A stretch of DNA of 63,472 bases, counting the filler, from Reclinomonas americana ATCC 50394 (Eukaryota): the NCBI GenBank assembly GCA_048213135.1. It is 7 parts of 2 records of this genome, joined end to end, with 100 filler letters (N's around TTAATTAATTAA, not from the genome) between each part and the next. Parts side by side here need not be neighbours in the genome. Positions count along the whole stretch, not along the records: positions 1 to 28,074 come from PS015574.1; 6 more parts are not named here. One strand, given 5' to 3'. A model generated the notes under the pieces. The model made no database searches and was not told where the DNA came from. It saw only the letters and a list, made by a program, of their open reading frames with translations. Below, piece after piece: positions 19 to 62,185 of the stretch (position 1 is its first letter; the number at the start of each line of letters is the position of its first letter). The position numbers were made by a program, and so were the translations under genes.

Positions 19-1967
19 TCATTGTGGCAGTGCTCTGGAGACGGCCTCGAAGCAGAAAAAGACAAGCTGTTGCACGCACACAATAAGTGAAAAAGCGGGT
101 GGAGAGAGGAGGGAGCACGAAACTGCATGCATGGGCAGTGCTCGGATGATTGCTGGCACGAGACCGCGGTGAAAGGCAGCAATGCCTCCTTCGTGCCATA
201 TCTGTGTGCAAGCACGAGAGAGATGGGTGAAGGGTTTCCACAAAGAGAGATGGACGATCAAGCAGCACGCACTTCGCGCACACAGTGCATCAAGGCTGCG
301 AGCGCAACAAGTGAGAAAACCATGCAGTATCGATCCCTGGCGACGGGAAACGGCACGCAACAAGTGTACTGGCCCGGATGAGCGTTGCTCATGCGCGTCT
401 TCACCACATCGATGGGATACAAGGGTGGCATCCTGCAGTTGCGCTGGCGGTGAGCAAGTTGTTGCACACATAGAGTCTCCATCGATGTGACACGAACTTA
501 CCACTGCAAGACTCCGGCCACCGCACCTGGATCGGCAATCACATGTAAGTGTGCACCAGATCGCTTACCCAGCTGAACAAAAAGGAATGCACGTACCAGC
601 CACGAGACAGCGCTGCAGGGAGAGCTGATCACCCGGCTTGGCGTCGGCTGGCGTCAGCGCTCGCTTGGTGATGTCGTCTGCGGCGAAGGCGATATTTTGA
701 CTCACAAACACAAACATGTGCAGCATTCACGGAGGAGACGCAACACGTAGGGTAGTAGACGCCGAACTGGGTGCCCTCACGAATCATGGTGGCCGACAGA
801 CCGCGGAAGAGGCCGTGTCGGAATCCTTCTCTCCTCACCAGGTCGGCGACACACGCACCGGACCAGCGATACGGCGCCAGACCGCCTGCCCGTTCCCTGC
901 CTGCCGAAAGTAATCACACACCAAACAGAAAGGAGATCAGAGAGAAGGAGAGAGCGCAGTGGCGACGCCGAGAATGCAGGAGCACGGAACCTTGCATGAC
1001 AATCTTCACACGCTCAAACTAATTAATGCATTGGCGATGAGTGTTCTCGTTGTCAGTGTCCAAGCAAGTGCGGAAACAAAACACGAACGACGTGAGCTCA
1101 CCACCTGCAACACACATACACACGGTAAGAGACTCGTGCAGTGACAGCGAATGCCGCCGCACGACGCAACATGCCGGACGGGACCCTGCGCGATACCAGC
1201 AAAGAAACCGCAGGCGCCCAACTCCCACACCGACAGCTGCTTGTGCGGATCGCCGCCCTGCATCGTGCGTCGCGCCCAACCATTGGAACCGAAGCTGAGA
1301 GCAAGTCAGGAACTTGCCGCGAAGAAAGCCACAACATGCAAGCCACACACCTGATGGCGTACATGATGCCGTCTTTATCACGCAACGACGAAGGTGAGCG
1401 ACGATCTGACTCGGGTACGATACACACACACGCACTGCAGTGTCACGCAACAGCCTGCACAGCAGAGAGTCAGCAATCGCATCAACACAGAGGCACACGA
1501 CGAGGTGATCATGACAAACCACTGACAGGGCTCAACAGGCCGCGATCTTTGCGATGACACTCGTGAGCATGCAGCGGGGGCGGGTGAGCAAGAGAGAGAC
1601 GCAACAGAGCGCCCGGTAACCGTCGGCACGGATCATGGACTGCATCGTGGAGTACTGCATGCATGCAAAGCATCAGTGATCACTCGCAACACTGAGAGAG
1701 AGACACACACACACAGACCATGCCAGCACCGCTGGCGCCACGGTGCAGCTGCAGTCGCGTCTTGGCAGTGTCAAAGGGCTGTGCACGATCATGATCAGCG
1801 CCGAGGAAGGGAGAATGCCACTCATGCAGTACTCACAAAAACAGCAGTGATGCCGATCGCTCCCGCTGTGTGCATCGAGTGGAGTGAGTGAGTGGATGTG
1901 GAGGAGGACGGCGGTCAGGAAGAAGACCGATGGAGCCGGCAGCAAGGTCGTGCACCAGTGCTTGCAT
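19..1967 (-). CDS. Mitochondrial carrier family (SLC25) protein, paralog A, about 16 exons
   Basis: Manual splicing gives MQALVHDLAAGSI..., YRALYRGLLSPVSGYGIMYAI, HVFERVKIVMQ, GLFRGLSATMIREGTQFGVYYPTY, PPLYPIDVVKTRM, GFHRGL-like AFHRGLVPAIIRALPMHALVFF...PQ*. It has three carrier repeats and resembles carnitine/ornithine-type carriers. Confidence 0.9.
1102..1104 (-). other. 3-nt microexon (GTG, Val) in carrier A
   Basis: Minus strand reads tgttgcag|GTG|gtgagc. The same arrangement occurs in paralog B at 3008-3010. It restores the G-x10-E spacing before FERVK. Confidence 0.8.
1452..1454 (-). other. 3-nt microexon (GCT; completes the Gly and Tyr codons) in carrier A
   Basis: Minus strand reads tgtgcag|GCT|gttgcgt, giving SPVS-G-Y-GIMYAI. 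The counterpart in paralog B is at 3358-3360. Confidence 0.8.
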
Positions 1968-2010
1968 GACGCGACTGAAACGATGACGACGGACGATTTG
2001 TCCTTTGTTT

Positions 2011-3812
2011 TTATTGTGGCTCGGGAAGTTTGCCGAAGAGCAGTAACATGGACGCCTCGTAGCTGAAGAAGACAAGCTGTGTGGAGACCCGGCGAGAGGT
2101 CGGTCATCGGAGACAAGGGTCTCGGAAGAATGGAAACGACGTCAACGCAACTGCGTGCATCGGAAGTGCTCGTGCCAGTGCTGGGACGAGTCCGCGATGA
2201 AAGGCGCCAATGCCGCCCTCGGCGTACAGCTGCAGAACCAGACACACAGGTCAGTGTGAGAGGATCGAGGCTGTAATGGAAGCGGAGAACGTACCTTGCG
2301 AATGCAGTCCCAGACACCTGCGTTTGTACAAGGGTCTTGGTGAGCACGCGCGCTGAGTTGCATCGCATCGGGCTCGTCGTGCACAAACCAGTGTACTCGC
2401 CAGGCAATGCATTACTCATGCGTGTCTTCACGACGTCGATCGCGTACAGCGGTGGAAGCCTGCGAAAACAGAGACAAGTGTGAGCCACCGATGTGACGAT
2501 GATCAAGAGTTTGCAGCGCACCATTGTAGCACACCGGCCGCAGCGCCGGCCACCAGGCACTGAACCAGCGACACGTGGTTGGCGGGTGCATCGACTGGTC
2601 TCAGTGCCTCCTTCACCAGATCGTCTGCCACGCAGCGCAGTGAACGAGAGAGTCACGAAGAGAAATCGCTGTGAAGCGCCACGCAACAGGCTGGATAGTA
2701 GACGGCGAACTGAGCGCATTCGCGAATGGTGGTCGATGTGTTGCCACGAAAGAGGCCCTGCCTCAAACCCTCTTTCCGGATGAGATCTGCGGCACACGCT
2801 CCTGACCAGCGATACGGTGCGTGACCGCCGGCACTTTCACGAGCTGTCACACAGTCAGTGAAATGCAAGGAAACTCGACGGTACATGGCGCGTCACCTTG
2901 CATCACGATCTTGACACGCTCAAACTGCGCTCCTCCACACACGAGAGAGTTCAAGTGAGAAAAACAACGCCACGGCAATCACCTGGGTGACGGGCTCAAA
3001 TACGAACCACCTGCGTCGGGGGGGAGTGAGCCAGCAGCAGCGAGGAGAAAGACAGCACGCTTGCACGCAACATGCGTGGGAGGCGCCTGTGCGAGACCAG
3101 CAAAAGCCCCACACAGGGCCAGCTGGTACACCGAGAGTGGCTTTCCGTCTTCCCCACCCTGCATCGTGCGTCGCGCCCAACCGTATGCTGCAAAACTGCG
3201 ACATCCACGAGTGAGACCAAGCGAGTGCATTGCCAGCTCGCAGCGTGTTCGCACTCACCTGATAGCGTACATGCCACCGTCTGCGAGCGACGTGAGTGAG
3301 GAGAGCACTGCAGTGAGCAAACAACTCCACAGCGACACGGACGAGGAGACAACTCACATCCTGCCAGCATACATGCGCACCAAGTGAGGCAACTCGCCAC
3401 ATGAACGGCTTGCATGCAAGATGCACTCACCGGATACTGGTGAAAGCAGTCCACGGTATAATGAGCGCACACCGTCCTTCCGTACCAGATCGCGCATCGC
3501 CGACATCTTTTGCACACAAGAAAGGTGATTTCTCCGAGTTTTCGAACATGATCACTCACACACACAACACACGGACCATGCCAATGCCGTGCGCGCCGTG
3601 ATGCACTTGGAGGCGAGTCTTGGCCGTGTCAAACGGCTGCACAGGGGTGAACACAAGAGACGCATTACACGAGAGAGAAAAGGCGACGCACAAAGACAGC
3701 CGTGATGCCGATCGATCCAGCTGCGCACTGGTGTCAGTGGTCGCCACTCACCTCTCTTGTTACAGCACTCACCGATCGATCCAGCCACCAAGTCCGCGAT
3801 GAACGCGTCCAT
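2011..3812 (-). CDS. Mitochondrial carrier family (SLC25) protein, paralog B (tandem duplicate)
   Basis: MDAFIADLVAGSIAGSIGITAVFPFDTAKTRLQ, LYRGLLSPVSGYGGMYAI, HVFERVK, GLFRGNTSTTIRECAQFAVYYPAY, LYAIDVVKTRM. It is colinear with paralog A and shares most intron positions. Confidence 0.9.
3008..3010 (-). other. 3-nt microexon (GTG, Val) in carrier B
   Basis: Minus strand reads gacgcag|GTG|gttcgt between the PTH and FERVK exons. Confidence 0.8.
3358..3360 (-). other. 3-nt microexon (GAT) in carrier B
   Basis: Minus strand reads ctggcag|GAT|gtgagt. It differs from paralog A only at the synonymous third base of Gly (GGA vs GGC). Confidence 0.8.
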
Positions 3813-3909: not shown

Positions 3910-4276
3910 ATGTCGTCCATGCGCAACCTCACCAAGCGACGCAACCACAGAGAGGTTGGTCTCCTCTTCATTTCTTTGACTCTCTCTCTCTCTCTCTCTG
4001 CGTGTCTCTCTGCTGTCGCCCACCTCGCCATGGAGTGTGTGTGATTTCCTCCCCTCGCCTTCTTCTTCTCGTTGTTGGGAGAATCGGGGCCTCTTTTTTG
4101 GGGGGGCGGTGGTCTGTGCATGTGAATGTGCACTTACACTCGTTTTCCGCACAGCGCTCGCAACCCGGCGCCCGCCAGCATCGCGGCCTGTTGGAGAAGC
4201 ACAAGGACTATGTGGAACGTGCTCGTGACTTTCACAAGAAGGAGGTGAGTCTTCTTCTGAGAGTGTGACACACACA

Positions 4277-4314
<38 letters not shown>

Positions 4315-5212
4315 TACACACACACACACACACACACACACTCTGGGAGCGGCCTCGTCTCCACCAGCTCACGATGAATGATCACCACGTAGGATCGTCT
4401 GAGGAAACTCACCGAGGCCGCCAGCATGCGCAACCCCGACGAGTTCTACTTCAAGATGATCAACTCGTCCACCAAGAACGGCGTTCACATTCAACTGCGA
4501 CCAGAAGAGGAGCTCGGGAAGCACACGGCTGATGAGCTGCGACTGATGCACACTCAGGACTTGGGCTATCTGCGCATGCGCAAGCAAATGGAGGAGAAGG
4601 TCGGTGTTGGTCTTCTGTCTCACACGCAGTGTGTGCGCTGTGCTCACACGTGCCACCACCACTGTTGCGCTCGCCAGAAAATCGAAAAGCTGCAGGGCGA
4701 GCTGACCTTTGCGAATGCCGATGGCCCGATCGCCACGGCCTCGCGGCCGACACATCGCGTGTTTGTGGCGTCGGAGGAGCAAATAGAGGAGTTTGATCCC
4801 ACCGAGTACTTTGACACGCCGCTGGAGCTGCTGGATGTGAAGCACAACCGGTGAGACCTTCTCGTCTTTTCCCCCCGCTCGCTCTGTCTCGCCCGCGCTC
4901 ATGCGATCCATTTTTGCCGGCAGACCTCGCACGGCCAAGGTGGCCGAACTGGCGGCCGCCATTGCTGCTGAGGGAGAAAAGGCCGTGGCTTCCAGGGTGC
5001 TGCCGCGGACCACAGAGAAGACACGGAAGCAGCGCAAGCGTTTGTACACGGAGCTTGCCGACCGCATCGATCGTGAGGAGAAGGTCGATCGAGTGATTCG
5101 CAAGCTGGAGTTGCAGAAGAATCTGATGAACAAGGGCAAGCGACGCAAGGTGGCGCCCGCCAAGGACGGAGAACCGGCGGTGTTCAAGTGGTCTCGAGAG
5201 CGCAAGCGATGA
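3910..5212 (+). CDS. UTP11: U3 snoRNA-associated protein 11 (SSU processome), 5 exons
   Basis: MSSMRNLTKRRNHRE|RSQPGARQHRGLLEKHKDYVERARDFHKKE|...RNPDEFYFKMINS...FKWSRERKR*, with four GT-AG introns in frame. Confidence 0.93.
4268..4341. repeat. (CA)n microsatellite in UTP11 intron 2
   Basis: About 37 nearly perfect AC units. CA/TG and GA/TC tracts are common in introns across the window. Confidence 0.95.
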
Positions 5213-23961: not shown

Positions 23962-26900
23962 ATGTCGGGTGGGCAACCTACGCCGTACTCTGGCGTGTTT
24001 GGCCGTCAAGGGCCCAAGCGTGAGCGCGATGGCGTCGATGCTGATGCTGTCTATGTGGGTGGACTTGGTCGAGGGTGCGTATGCACACACACACGCGCAC
24101 ACACACTCACACACTCTCGTGCACCATGCTCTCTTTCTCTCATGCATATTTCCACGTGCGTGTGCGTCTGTCATCATCGTCATCGTTGTGATTGATGCAT
24201 TTTGTGCATGCATGCACAGTGCGCGCGCATTCACCACCTCGGCCGAGACTGCAGCTGTGCGGACTCAGTTCTCGTACGTAAGCCACCCTTGTGATGTTGC
24301 GCAGCAGGCGCCCTTGTCTCATTGTGTGTGTGTGTGTGTGCGCGCGCGTGGCAAATCAGGGCACCTCCAAGTGGACCCAGTGGTGGCGGTCGCGGCAGTG
24401 GCCTGTTTGGTCCACGTCCGGCGGGCTACGTGCCTGGCGCAGGTCGTGGTGCAGCGCCTGCGTCGCTCACGGCTATGGATACTTGTGCGTCGCGTGATCA
24501 GGCACGTTTCTCTGTGTGCGTGTGTGCTGAAAGGCATCGTTCAATGTCGCAGTGGAACCGGCGTACAAGCGCCGCAAGATGGAGCGCGAGGGCAAGCGTG
24601 CCAACGACGAAGGCACAGTGCTCATGCCGCAGGCTCCCGCGCCGGCGCCTCCGCCAATGGGAGGTGGTGGACGAGGAGGCCGCGACGAAGAGGGCGGTGG
24701 TGAGGACGAGGGCCAGTTTGACAACTGGGCCGGCAGCGGTGCTGGTCTGTTTGCCAACGATCCCTACGACGATGAGGACCGCGAGGCCGATTCGGTGTAC
24801 CAGATGATTGACGAGCGCATGGATTCGCGGCGCCGTGACGCGCGTGAGAAGGCGCTGAAGGAGCAGATGACCAAGTTCCGCCACCAGACACCGAAGATCC
24901 AGCAACAGTTTGCCGACCTGAAGAAGAACCTCAGTGGTGCGCACATGTCTGTTCTTCTATAAGTCGTGTGTGTTAGATGATGCTCACTCGCAGTGTTTAC
25001 GCAGTGGTGTCGGCCGACGAGTGGACTGCCATTCCCGAAATTGGCGACCGCAGCATTCGCTTCCGCAAGAAGAAGGAGATCTACACTCGCGCACCAGACT
25101 CACTGCTGGAGGTGGCGCGTGCCGAGGCCACGCACATGACGACACTGGACGATCGGCAGCAGTCGGGTGCCGAGACGCCAATGACCGATCTCACGGCCGT
25201 CGGCGAGGCTCGTGGCACGGTCATGGCGGCCAAGCTGACAAAGCTCGCCGACTCGGTGTCGGGCCAGACGGTTGTGAATCCGCAGTCGTACCTCACCGAT
25301 CTCGGCTCGCTGCAAGTACACAGCGCCGCCGACATTAGCGACATCAAGAAGGCTCGTCTGCTGCTGAACTCGGTGACCACCACCAATCCTACACATGCGC
25401 CTGGCTGGATTGCCGCTGCGCGTCTAGAGGAGCAAGCTGGTCGAGTGGCGGCCGCTCGCACCATTATCAATCAGGGTTGCGAAGCGTGTCCTCTCAACGA
25501 AGATGTGTGGCTGGAGGCGTCACGTTTGGCCGTTGCGTGTTTGCGCTCTTTCCTTTCCGCCCACACACATTGTTTGATTGCCGCGCTCACGAGTTGAGGT
25601 GCAGACGCCGGACAATGCCAAAAAGGTGCTGGCGCTGGCCATCCAGAAGATTCCCACCAGCATCAAGATCTGGCTCCAAGCGGCCTCGCTGGAGAATGAT
25701 GAAAAACTGAAGAAGCGCGTACTTCGACGAGGTATGCTGGTGTTGTTGTCATTGACCGGGGGAATTCTGCTGTGAGCTGACTTGTCCGTGGCGCAGCGCT
25801 GCAACACGTGCCAAACTCTGTTCGCTTGTGGAAGGAGGCCGTCTCATTGGAGGACCCCGACGACGCTCGAATCATGCTCAGTCGCGCTGTGGAGTTACGT
25901 CAAGCCGGGCATGTCTTGTTCTTTTTTTGTGGTCGTGGACTCAAGACGAGCTGTTGCATGGTGTGCAGATGCGTGCCACAAAGTGTCGACATGTGGTTGG
26001 CGCTGGCGCGCTTGGAGTCGTACGAGAACGCCAAGAAGGTGCTGAACCGGGCACGCAAAGCGCTGCCGACAGAGCCACTGATTTGGATCACGGCCGCCAA
26101 ACTCGAGGAGGCCAATGACCACGAGGACCGCATTCAGATGATTATCAAGAACGGTATGACTGTGTGTGTGTGTTCTCTCCTTTTCTTGTGGTCCTCGACT
26201 CATCTCGGTTGCTCCGCCCTCCCACGCAGCTGTCAAGTCTCTCACGGCGCACAGTGCGGTGCTGGATCGCGAGTCGTGGATCAAAATGGCTCGTGAGTGC
26301 GAGGCCTCCGGATCCGTGCAAACGTGTCAAGCTATTGTCCGCGAGACCATTGGAATGGGTATCGATGACGAGGATCGCAAGCACTCGTGGATGGAGGACG
26401 CAGAAAAGGTGCGTGGGTGGTGTCTGTGTCTGGATTGGATCGTGTGGATTTCTTGGTTTTCATCTTTGCGTTCACAGAGCCGTGCCGAGGGATTCGTGGA
26501 GACCGCCCGTGCGATCTATGCGCACGCGCTTTCCGTGTTCCGCAACAAGAAGAGTCTGTGGCTGGCGGCCGCCAATCTCGAACGCAAGCACGGACAGCTG
26601 GGTGCGTACCGTGTCACAAACGAAAAAGTAGTATGCGAGAGCCACACTCACCTCTGCGCCACACACAGACACGTTGAACGAGTTGCTGAAGCGTGCCGTG
26701 ACATTCTGCCCTCAAGCCGAGACGCTGTGGCTGATGGCCGCCAAGGAGCGATGGTTGGCGGTTCGTAGCACGCACTACCTATCTCATGTTTGTCCGCGCG
26801 TCGTCTGAGATTCATTTTTCGCGTGCGCTCAGGGTGATGCCGATGGAGCACGTGTGATTTTGAGCGAGGCCTTTGCTGCAAATCCCGACAGTGAGGCCAT

Positions 26901-27943: not shown

Positions 27944-28118
27944 TGATTCTGTATGCGTGTGCGCCGTCTGTCGGAATCCTTTGACAATACACACAGGCGA
28001 GGGTACGATTCACTCGAAAAATCATGTCATTGGTGGCTTCATCGGCTTGAACCACGGTGGCGCAAAAGCGTACANNNNNNNNNNNNNNNNNNNNNNNNNN
28101 NNNNNNNNNNNNNNNNNN

Positions 28119-28130
28119 TTAATTAATTAA
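28119..28130. other. Artificial contig spacer TTAATTAATTAA (also at 35929-35940, 46533-46544, 54587-54598, 59614-59625, 62034-62045)
   Basis: An identical 12-mer with stops in all six frames, flanked each time by about 44 N. Confidence 0.98.
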
Positions 28131-28174
28131 NNNNNNNNNNNNNNNNNNNNNNNNNNNNNNNNNNNNNNNNNNNN

Positions 28175-35860: not shown

Positions 35861-36102
35861 GTGCGTCGCCAGCGCAGCAACGCGNNNNNNNNNNNNNNNN
35901 NNNNNNNNNNNNNNNNNNNNNNNNNNNNTTAATTAATTAANNNNNNNNNNNNNNNNNNNNNNNNNNNNNNNNNNNNNNNNNNNNGGCACAGGCGAGAGAG
36001 CTTGCTCTTCTCTTGTTGCTCAGTAAGAGAGAGAGAGAGGGAGGAGAGTGGGAGAAGGCGCGCCATGGCGGTGACAGATCTCTCTCTTCTCTTCTCTCTC
36101 AC

Positions 36103-46488: not shown

Positions 46489-46588
46489 NNNNNNNNNNNN
46501 NNNNNNNNNNNNNNNNNNNNNNNNNNNNNNNNTTAATTAATTAANNNNNNNNNNNNNNNNNNNNNNNNNNNNNNNNNNNNNNNNNNNN

Positions 46589-54542: not shown

Positions 54543-54642
54543 NNNNNNNNNNNNNNNNNNNNNNNNNNNNNNNNNNNNNNNNNNNNTTAATTAATTAANN
54601 NNNNNNNNNNNNNNNNNNNNNNNNNNNNNNNNNNNNNNNNNN

Positions 54643-57324: not shown

Positions 57325-59553
57325 ATGCGCGCCTTCCTCTGCCTCACTGTGTGCGTGTTGCTCGCCGTGGCCATTGCCACCGGCAACCTGTCAATGGCCG
57401 CCGCCCCGGGTGCTCGTGTAACAGTGCGTGTGTGTGTGTGTGTGTGTGCGAGAATGCGGTTCTTCCATCCAACTCTCTCACACATCCGCGTCTTTCCTCG
57501 TTCGCTTGCGCAGGTCACTGGCGCCGGTGTGAATCATGTGCTCTCGGTGTGTGTTTTCTTAAAGAGAGTGTGTGTGTGTGTGTGCGTGCTCACATTGTGG
57601 GTTCGGAGAATATAGGAGAGTCTTCCGGTGCTGCTCAAGCAGCTGCAGGTGTGTGTGTGTGTGTGTGTGTGTTGAGGTGTATGCGAGAGAGTGCGTTGTT
57701 GACAGACTCGTGCGCAGGACATTACCATTCCCGATGTGCACGGCAAGGCGGTGAGTGTGTGTGCGCGAGTGTGAGCGAGAGAGAGACGATGTGTGTGCCC
57801 ACTTCTCCTCCTGCTCTCTCTAACGCAGAACGTGGTCATTGGTGTGTGTGTGCGCGCGCATGTGTGCTTGAGAATGCGCGGATTGATCACTTTCTTCAGG
57901 CGACATTTCGTACGACTTGACGCAGATTACGCTGCGAAACTTGCAGCTGCAGGCTGTCAGCGTCGGTCTCTCGGCGCCCAACAACATCCAGCTCGGCATC
58001 TCGGGACTGAGCTTGGAGGGAGATTTCCACTGGTAGAATGAGAGGTCGTAGAGACGTGAGAGAGCGCCACCCGCTGCTAATCCCCAGCATGTGTGCACAG
58101 GCATTACAGCACGTGGTTCGCCAGCGACAGCGGCACAGGTGCACAGAAGAACATGTCTCCCTCTCTCTTTTCCTCCCTCCGCCACTGACTGTGCACGTTG
58201 GGGTGCAGGCAAGCTGAACACCGACGGCTCCACCATGAGCTTCAACGTGGTCCTCGGCGCGGCCAATGGCGAGCCGACGGTGCAGTGCACGGGCGGCAGC
58301 GTGTCGCTCAACGACTTCCACGTGAGCCTCTCCGGCGGCGCCTCGTGGCTCTACAACTTTATCGTCGGCCTCGTGCAGGGCGACATTAAGAACTCGGCGC
58401 AGGATGGTATCCGCGGCGCCGTGCAGCAGGTGATTTTTTTGCTGGGTACCATGTGTGTGCATGCGTGTTGCTGACTATTTGATGCTGGTCGTGTAGGCCA
58501 TCAACTCGAACCTGGAGCACACCCTGAGCCAGCTGAGTCTCATTGCCAAGCTCGATCCGCATTGCAGCCTCGGTGACGTGCAGCTGAACATGCGCAAGTG
58601 ATTGTGGATGGCACTGAACGCGACCTCTCCCTTCTTTTCTACAGATTTCTCGATCCCCGCTGCCCCCGAGGTCAACAGTGTCTTTTGTTTCGTCTTCCCG
58701 CTGCTCTTCCTGTCCCTTTTTTTTTTTTGTCTCGGTCATGTTTTGCTCACATTGCGTGCATTACAGTCTCACTGCCGGCGCTTGGCGAGTTCTTCGTCAA
58801 CGGCAACCGCACGCCGAGCCCCGGCACCCCCGGCGCTCTCCCCGACAGCCTGGGCACGCGCATGGCGCAGGTGTTCCTCTCCGAGTGGTGAGTGACCCTC
58901 GTAACTTCTCCCTGCGTCGTTGCATCTCATTCACAAGCGACCTTGCAGGGTCGCCGACTCGGCTGGCTACGCGTACACCGAGGCCGGAGTGCTGGAGTAC
59001 ACGCTGACGCAGCGCGACATTCCCAGCAACATCCCCATTCAGCTCAACACCACCACTTTCAAGGATCTGTTGCCGCCGTTCTACGAGATGTTCCCCAACC
59101 GCACGTTTGAGATTGCGATCTCGGTGGATCCGAGCAACTTGCCGTTTGCCCACTTTACGCCAGCCGGTGCGCTCGCGAAGCTCTCGCTGTGTTCGTGCAC
59201 ACGTGTACTCACTGTCGTTGCCACAGGTGCCAATGTGACGGTGCAGGCACTGCTGGACATTCGCCCCTTCAACGCAGACGGCAGCACCGTGTCGGCGTTT
59301 GTGCTGGGTGCGGAACTGGGTCTGGCCGGCTCGGCCACCATCAATGGGCAGATTATCCTGCCGGAGCTCACTTTTGGCACGCTGGCGCTCACGCTCAAGG
59401 TAATAGCATCCCCGCATGCGGTTCGGCGTGTGTGTTTCACCCTCACATTCTTGCTTGCAGTCGAGCATCATTGGCATCTTTGACGTGTCGAAGCTGTCGC
59501 ACGTGGTGGGCCTCCTCTTCACCAACGTCGTCATTCCGTTTGTCAACCTGAAG
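57325..59553 (+). CDS. Secreted BPI/LBP/CETP-family lipid-binding protein (3' truncated)
   Basis: Signal peptide, PGARVTVTGAGVNHV, DITIPDVHG, VSLSGGASWLYNFIV, LDFSIPAAP, GEFF, RMAQVFLSEW, LNTTTFKDLLPPFYEMFPN. Confidence 0.88.
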
Positions 59554-59801
59554 GTCCGTTTTTCGCGTTNNNNNNNNNNNNNNNNNNNNNNNNNNNNNNN
59601 NNNNNNNNNNNNNTTAATTAATTAANNNNNNNNNNNNNNNNNNNNNNNNNNNNNNNNNNNNNNNNNNNNACACGAGCAAAGAGGGAGAAGGGAAGAAGAG
59701 AGAGAGAGAGAGATAGAAAGGGAAAGGCTATCATCGATCCTCTCACTGTTTTCTCTTCTTGAGAAGAGTGCGAGCTGCTCACTATAGCTATCTCTGTGTA
59801 G

Positions 59802-61769: not shown

Positions 61770-62185
61770 CTCTGTAAAAACGAGCGGACGACGGGGTCGA
61801 TGTCGACCTGCGATTAATTGCGCACCCCACACAATTGTTTTGATTGCAGAGAGTGTGCCGAGAGAGAGAATGTTGATGTTGGAGTTCCCTGACAGCGTGT
61901 CCATCTCGCTGATTGCTGCGCTGATTGGCGTGCTGTCCAACTTTATCGTCGGCAATGTGCGTGTGTGCAAAAAAACAAAGAGAGAAAAANNNNNNNNNNN
62001 NNNNNNNNNNNNNNNNNNNNNNNNNNNNNNNNNTTAATTAATTAANNNNNNNNNNNNNNNNNNNNNNNNNNNNNNNNNNNNNNNNNNNNGAGAGAGAGAG
62101 AGATAAAGAGAGAGAAGCGGATTTCGAATGCAGCACAAAAAAAGCACCAACAGAATTCTCACGCCAAAGCTGCCACTTAACTGAC

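Follow-up and report, generated by a model that had tools for sequence, protein, structure and literature searches.

Are exons of three nucleotides (nt) spliced as routine coding exons, or do three-base islands flanked by splice-site-like sequence have another explanation? The question is raised by a window of 63,472 nt (filler included) from the eukaryote Reclinomonas americana ATCC 50394 (GCA_048213135.1; positions 1 to 28,074 from PS015574.1), this being the whole stretch of DNA analysed here and the source of all coordinates. Positions 19 to 3812 comprise two tandem SLC25 carrier genes, A and B, both on the minus strand, which an earlier sequence-only reading had left unstated. That reading proposed that each gene holds two 3-nt microexons conserved between the paralogs, recognizable as CAG-NNN-GT islands; a microexon is taken here as an internal exon no longer than 27 nt. 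Our analysis suggests, with a probability of about 0.85, that the four islands are constitutive 3-nt coding exons, present in essentially all functional messenger RNA (mRNA), which predate the tandem duplication of A and B. That they are included microexons of one kind or another, constitutive or regulated, appears slightly more probable still. The gene models, built by hand, and the islands with their flanking introns are as follows.

2011 to 3812, minus strand: carrier paralog A (SLC25), 15 exons, 14 introns, 293 amino acids; stop-free spliced model, 321 bits against a homolog-only profile
3361 to 3430, minus strand: 70-nt phase-1 intron preceding A1, with a branch-point-like motif some 25 nt from its end
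3358 to 3360, minus strand: putative microexon A1, GAT, completing the Gly69 codon (two bases) and starting that of Tyr70 (one base), in helix 2
3281 to 3357, minus strand: intron downstream of A1, 77 nt, donor GTGAGT
3011 to 3071, minus strand: 61-nt phase-0 intron preceding A2, whose donor GTTGCGT follows an exon-final T
3008 to 3010, minus strand: putative microexon A2, GTG, Val119, signature-proline slot of helix 3
2925 to 3007, minus strand: intron downstream of A2, 83 nt, donor GTTCGT
19 to 1967, minus strand: carrier paralog B (SLC25), 17 exons, 16 introns, 288 amino acids; sister of A
1455 to 1519, minus strand: intron upstream of B1, 65 nt, phase 1
1452 to 1454, minus strand: putative microexon B1, GCT, completing the Gly69 codon (two bases) and starting that of Tyr70 (one base)
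1373 to 1451, minus strand: 79-nt intron following B1, whose donor GTTGCGT comes after an exon-final T, with an AAG acceptor
1105 to 1170, minus strand: 66-nt phase-0 intron preceding B2, whose donor GTTGCGT follows an exon-final T
1102 to 1104, minus strand: putative microexon B2, GTG, Val119
1019 to 1101, minus strand: 83-nt intron following B2, with donor GTGAGC and a TAG acceptor

The homologs of these carriers provide the most direct view of the expected protein length. A search with one unbroken exon returned 53 matches, of which 46 were retained after removal of seven non-carriers. At site 1 (A1/B1), 22 of the 26 spanning homologs have the length produced by inclusion, the other four being fragments or insertions of 13, 15, 16 and 36 residues; at site 2 (A2/B2), all 34 spanning homologs do. 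The skipped length, 18 residues at site 1, occurs in none of the 26 homologs there and in none of the 34 at site 2. The homologs most often carry Gly-Tyr (7) or Gly-Phe (5) at site 1, and Pro (14), Val (13) or Ile (5) at site 2. The alignment with SLC25 homologs thus bears out the prediction that inclusion restores helix spacing. Scored on a profile built from 22 homologs, the skipped forms lose 11.4 and 12.7 bits at site 1, and 7.3 and 8.9 bits at site 2; the median loss for a single-residue deletion is about 6.5 bits (90th percentile about 10.3). Moreover, both sites lie inside unbroken reading frames in nine of 12 related metagenome loci (L001-L009). These nine represent about four distinct types, L003-L007 and L008-L009 being near copies; the weak matches L010-L012 were left out, and none of the 12 belongs to a close relative that shares the flanking introns.

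The paralogs themselves indicate that the islands have outlived their surroundings. A and B share 201 of 287 aligned residues, 45% of third positions and 36 of 85 four-fold degenerate sites, and form a sister clade with support of 100/97 in a tree of 22 rows that includes 20 homologs chosen by length. None of the 14 paralogous intron pairs is more similar than the 95th percentile of unrelated pairs. The islands outlasted this rewriting of the surrounding introns, as the sequence-only reading had held: all four lie exactly where it had placed them, each with GCAG before and GT after, all four non-synonymous island bases are kept, and the single difference between A and B is synonymous, falling on the wobble base of a Gly codon split as G-GA or G-GC. 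Within the 214 introns of the 63-kb window, 15 of 13,307 interior positions show YAG-NNN-GT, and with a minimum of 52 nt required of each half, the chance of an island per merged intron is about 0.05. Four of four would then arise by chance with a probability of about 6e-6 if the islands are independent; near-independence between A and B is reasonable given that paralogous introns show no more similarity than unrelated introns do and that only 36 of 85 four-fold sites match.

Intron length and splice signals are consistent with inclusion. For these statistics the last, low-complexity gene model (5 introns) was dropped and the curated carrier models were used, giving 214 introns and 190 internal exons. 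The islands do lie between introns of ordinary size: the eight flanking introns span 61-83 nt, within the 52-90 nt of the 30 carrier introns (median 65.5 nt). Across the window the median is 70 nt (n=214), with 200 of 214 introns at most 95 nt and two between 140 and 160 nt. Skipping would require introns of 150 (A1), 147 (A2), 147 (B1) and 152 (B2) nt. A CTNAY branch-point-like motif lies within 45 nt of the AG in all eight flanking introns, and under a splice model from the non-carrier genes the islands score 3.6-7.1 as acceptors and 3.6-4.8 as donors. The skipped forms of both carriers remain open reading frames, and skipping is therefore frame-preserving, as had been noted.

We further examined the islands with our own gene finder, which has no minimum exon length and was self-trained on the window. 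Retrained on non-carrier genes only, it placed all four 3-nt exons exactly, preferring inclusion over skipping by 6.9, 7.3, 8.0 and 4.8 log units. An island won 18 times among 300 null introns of 150 nt, with a largest margin of 4.8, and the true island scored best among the 0-12-nt alternatives in each merged intron. This one finder, which sets no minimum exon size, thus recovers islands that the sequence-only reading expected gene finders to miss. Its errors within the carriers were a shortened B exon 4 and a truncation of A after exon 12 (non-carrier training), and a donor placed 3 nt upstream at B exon 5 (self-trained runs). Taken together, homolog spacing, intron-free loci, profile scores and splice-model recovery against a null uphold the core of the sequence-only reading.

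Several observations weigh against this interpretation. The recovery test falls short of full independence: the finder that produced the non-carrier training set had initially been seeded with carrier sequence, namely carrier exons and carrier introns outside the eight flanking ones, its self-training predictions then included the carriers, and one coding seed held some intron sequence. Two predicted introns of 145 and 148 nt contain no island, and such a length is therefore not forbidden. At A2, a zero-length route in which AG-GT is used directly scores 15.7 against 17.3 for inclusion (at B2, the AG-GTGGT equivalent scores 7.7 against 12.7). The profile loss at site 2 is barely above that of an average deletion. 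A1 ends in T yet has the donor GTGAGT, placing it in a minority outside the donor rule described below. Finally, exon skipping across eukaryotes accompanies short exons and, in a few species, also short introns, as PMC6142364 reports.

The two island-free introns lie at 4245-4392 (148 nt, plus strand, Utp11) and 24075-24219 (145 nt, plus strand, PRP6), both are lengthened by CA repeats, and no internal exon is predicted in either; PRP6 homologs lack no residue at the junction of the 145-nt intron.

Which residues would these exons encode? Single exons or open reading frames of the carriers match PF00153 at 23.8 and 21.1 bits, the latter just under the 22.3 cut-off. Full-length homologs carry three PF00153 stretches, and the spliced A and B models score 315-321 bits on the homolog profile. 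The charged residues of the Px[DE]xx[KR] signature are found in all three repeats of both paralogs. Its proline is retained in repeat 1 of both and in repeat 3 of B; in its place, repeat 2 has Val in both paralogs and repeat 3 of A has Ala. Substitution of the signature proline on H3 is known in ADP/ATP carriers (PMC7611774). In an alignment of homolog P0029 to the bovine ADP/ATP carrier 1okc, the site-2 Val faces the Pro of Px[DE]xx[KR], and the site-1 Gly-Tyr aligns across repeats with G182-I183 of 1okc, as counted along the printed alignment. According to PMC7611774, I183 is part of contact point II; substrates of one class are told apart at contact point I, which is the corresponding position on helix 2. 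By three-fold symmetry, microexon 1 would therefore encode most of Gly69 at contact point I. Microexon 2 would place Val119 in the helix-3 slot of the signature proline, two residues ahead of the matrix-gate Glu.

Both paralogs have Arg-Glu at the contact point II position on helix 4, invariant in the homolog alignment, and Arg at the contact point III position. As PMC10027655 gives R[DE] at contact point II as the rule for the amino-acid class, A and B are predicted to be amino-acid-class SLC25 carriers. They resemble that class in their three repeats, contact point II Arg-Glu and contact point III Arg, and differ from it in a helix-3 signature proline that is mostly Val or Ile. This substitution characterizes an apparently unnamed carrier clade (12 rows, 100/97) comprising A, B and homologs within P0003-P0042, which also features a conserved Pro four residues upstream of the helix-3 slot and a conserved W-x-P-P in helix 5.

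Three other explanations of the islands were considered. The microexons may be real and alternatively spliced, yielding one-residue isoforms that act as an on/off or specificity switch; without site 1, Asp would take the place of Gly-Tyr at contact point I, and without site 2, helix 3 would be shortened just before the matrix-gate glutamate. The frame survives such skipping, codon-sized exons of the nank genes of Tuber are described as alternatively spliced (PMC4986451), and the GTG islands begin with GT, offering a recursive, zero-length route that is second best in A2 by only 1.6 log units. However, no homolog has the short spacing at either site. Both residues lie in transmembrane helices, and carrier indels are reported to fall almost only in loops, with introns less common in helix cores (PMC10027655). 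Exon skipping is also tied to long flanking introns (PMC6142364), and here they are short. Recursive use would need a GTGGT donor, with which none of the 214 introns begins, and site 1 has no AG-GT. Nor do the islands resemble regulated or diversifying microexons, such as neural microexons or those of the Tuber nank genes, as there are no arrays of interchangeable codon exons and no long flanking introns, only single islands between introns of 61-83 nt. Deleting one residue from a helix turns its downstream face by about 100 degrees under standard helix geometry, and from that geometry the skipped products are probably non-functional. These data lean against useful one-residue isoforms, which the sequence-only reading had raised, and we regard regulated inclusion as improbable. 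Were it nonetheless true, the cell would tune or silence a mitochondrial transporter residue by residue, at site 2 perhaps via the exon's own GT, and the switch would pair with a spliceosome that reads donors in two registers set by the last exon base, with exon length irrelevant.

Site 2 could also be explained without a microexon, if the upstream exon were 3 nt longer (GTT, also Val) and followed by a GC-AG intron of about 144-149 nt, giving the same protein. The upstream donor reads GTT-GC in both paralogs, so protein evidence alone cannot separate this from the microexon; the pattern of donor use speaks against it. GTTGCGT is the commonest donor (32/214) and is cut at GT wherever paralog or homolog alignment provides a check, for example at introns 10 and 14 of A, intron 4 of B and the PRP6 junction at 25532, and the finder, permitted GC donors at a penalty, took none among 214 introns. 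This explanation would further leave unexplained the conserved CAG-GTG-GT island with its own branch point. It has no counterpart at site 1, where inspection found neither a tandem NAGNAG acceptor nor a +3 GT donor to replace the island. We consider it very improbable. No greater weight falls on the proposal that the islands are chance motifs within introns of about 150 nt, leaving the carriers one residue short at each site. The open skipped frames and the rare 145-148-nt introns are compatible with it, but it would require an event of about 0.05 per intron to occur four times of four within sequence-saturated introns, and the island residues are exactly of the types seen in homologs.

How might a constitutive 3-nt exon be recognized? 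We propose recognition by intron definition, in which the two ends of each short intron are paired with one another, such that exon size would be irrelevant to recognition. Three bases cover the exon positions contacted by U1 and U5 at a donor, and the downstream intron should therefore be removable with the upstream intron still attached. As two spliceosomes cannot fit 3 nt apart, the flanking introns would be removed one after the other. Downstream-first removal may be slightly favoured by analogy with plants, where PMC8831610 describes consecutive removal with the upstream intron detained and downstream-first reads prevailing in 32 of 49 testable cases. Two features would work against skipping: it calls for an intron of 150 nt among introns that usually measure about 70 nt, and it deletes a residue within a transmembrane helix.

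The splice sites of the window also include a second donor class. The hexamer GTTGCG begins 37 of 214 introns, more than any other (GTTGCGT accounts for 32 of them); it lacks the +5G and resembles GTGCGT with one additional T. In 36 of 37 cases it follows an exon that does not end in G (Fisher p 8e-21). Examples are as follows.

3071, 2687, 2151, 1605, 1451 and 1170, minus strand: GTTGCG donors
25532, plus strand: GTTGCG donor

B1, with its final T and GTTGCGT donor, fits this rule, and the GTG islands, which end in G, use ordinary donors. A literature search on the GTTGCGT donor gave nothing relevant among the matches listed (titles and starts of abstracts). The introns downstream of the islands (77, 83, 79 and 83 nt) are four of the five longest among the 30 carrier introns; of 184 non-carrier introns, 46 are at least 77 nt and 30 at least 83 nt. 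This association is only suggestive, comprising two independent events in a post hoc look, and exon size has no general link to neighboring intron length (Spearman rho 0.03). At the acceptor side, AAG is used by three of the 30 carrier introns and eight of 214 overall, e.g. at 3507, 1547 and 1373 (minus strand). B exon 5 ends in a tandem donor, GTG then GT (1520-1525, minus strand), which is where the self-trained finder took the site 3 nt upstream. That choice would drop one residue beside B1; homolog spacing favors the downstream site.

The microexons would have arisen before the tandem duplication and been retained since by purifying selection. Their origin may lie in two introns landing 3 nt apart in a very intron-dense gene, rather than in a purpose-built regulatory cassette: per kb of coding sequence, the carriers hold 16-18 introns and the window about 6. 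A geometric model of the 28 carrier internal exons expects 1.5 of at most 3 nt, and four are seen (two independent). Tiny exons are not common in the window. Among 162 non-carrier internal exons, none is of 1-3 nt (2.9 expected) and two are of at most 15 nt (13.9 expected), a count from which the finder may have missed some. The homologous loci that lack these introns are compatible with gain here or loss there. Two introns are present in B and not in A (1547-1605 and 527-596, minus strand), indicating that intron gain or loss continued after the duplication. Origin by duplication of one flanking intron was rejected at the present resolution, as upstream and downstream introns are no more alike than unrelated ones (null fractions 0.21-0.89). 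An all-versus-all comparison of the 214 introns for introner-like families gave only microsatellite or low-complexity matches.

Other small exons are predicted in an LBP/BPI-family gene at 57325-59569 (plus strand), with frame-shifting exons of 13 nt (57829-57841) and 8 nt (58679-58686) and three consecutive 33-nt exons. In this predicted model, omitting either small exon leads to a premature stop.

How do these islands compare with known systems? Recursive splice (RS) sites and RS-exons have been described for long introns. The two GTG islands resemble them in giving an AG-GT junction able to recreate a donor, and differ in that site 1 does not start with GT, the homologs require the residue and the introns here are short. 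The fungus Coprinopsis cinerea has exons no longer than 3 nt in 89 gene models, including 27 exons of 3 nt in 26 genes (PMC12230235). As described there, it resembles the present case in having internal 1-3-nt coding exons in an intron-rich microbial eukaryote, and differs in lineage and in resting on long-read-based annotation, where our evidence derives from paralogs and homologs. In plants, 1-nt exons have been validated in APC11 and VPS55 (PMC4674806; PMC8831610). The small plant microexons reported in these papers are likewise mostly included, conserved, missed by annotation, located within larger exons in other lineages and flanked by consecutively removed introns. They differ in their validation by RNA sequencing or reverse-transcription PCR, and the carriers here in holding two per gene, between introns of 60-85 nt and with an unusual second donor class. 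The Tuber melanosporum nank genes also feature 3-nt frame-preserving exons, described as multiple, alternatively spliced diversification cassettes in receptor-like genes (PMC4986451); the carrier islands are isolated and conserved, occupy structurally fixed transporter positions, and at site 1 straddle two codons. PMC4739763 contributed a microexon search method only. Among the papers listed by our literature search, none dealt with 3-nt exons of SLC25 genes or of a comparable protist, with supplementary microexon lists and most subscription papers outside its scope. As 1-3-nt exons are already described in plants and fungi, the carrier islands are very probably a well-supported further example rather than a new phenomenon.

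Their value lies in their anchoring. The 3-nt exons proposed here are held in place by two paralogs with saturated introns, by homolog spacing at fixed helix positions and by intron-free homologous loci, which makes routine splicing of such exons by this organism much more credible. The four islands could thus serve as a paralog- and homolog-anchored positive control for tiny exons, where annotation with a minimum exon size would silently lose two key residues per carrier.

The window as a whole is of about 58% GC and eukaryotic, and is assembled from joined pieces separated by N runs. These occur in pairs around a 12-base core (a stop-rich linker where read) at 28075-28174, 35885-35984, 46489-46588, 54543-54642, 59570-59669 and 61990-62089. 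Beyond 28 kb the window consists of separate joined contigs, and gene neighborhood across the joins is therefore meaningless. A Pfam scan of the 150 longest of 684 open frames of at least 60 amino acids matched Utp11, Utp6, kinesin, PRP6-type HAT/TPR repeats, Sec1, Sin1, folliculin, vasohibin and LBP/BPI. The best protein matches of the PRP6 exon are at most 63% identical and derive mainly from plants and green algae.

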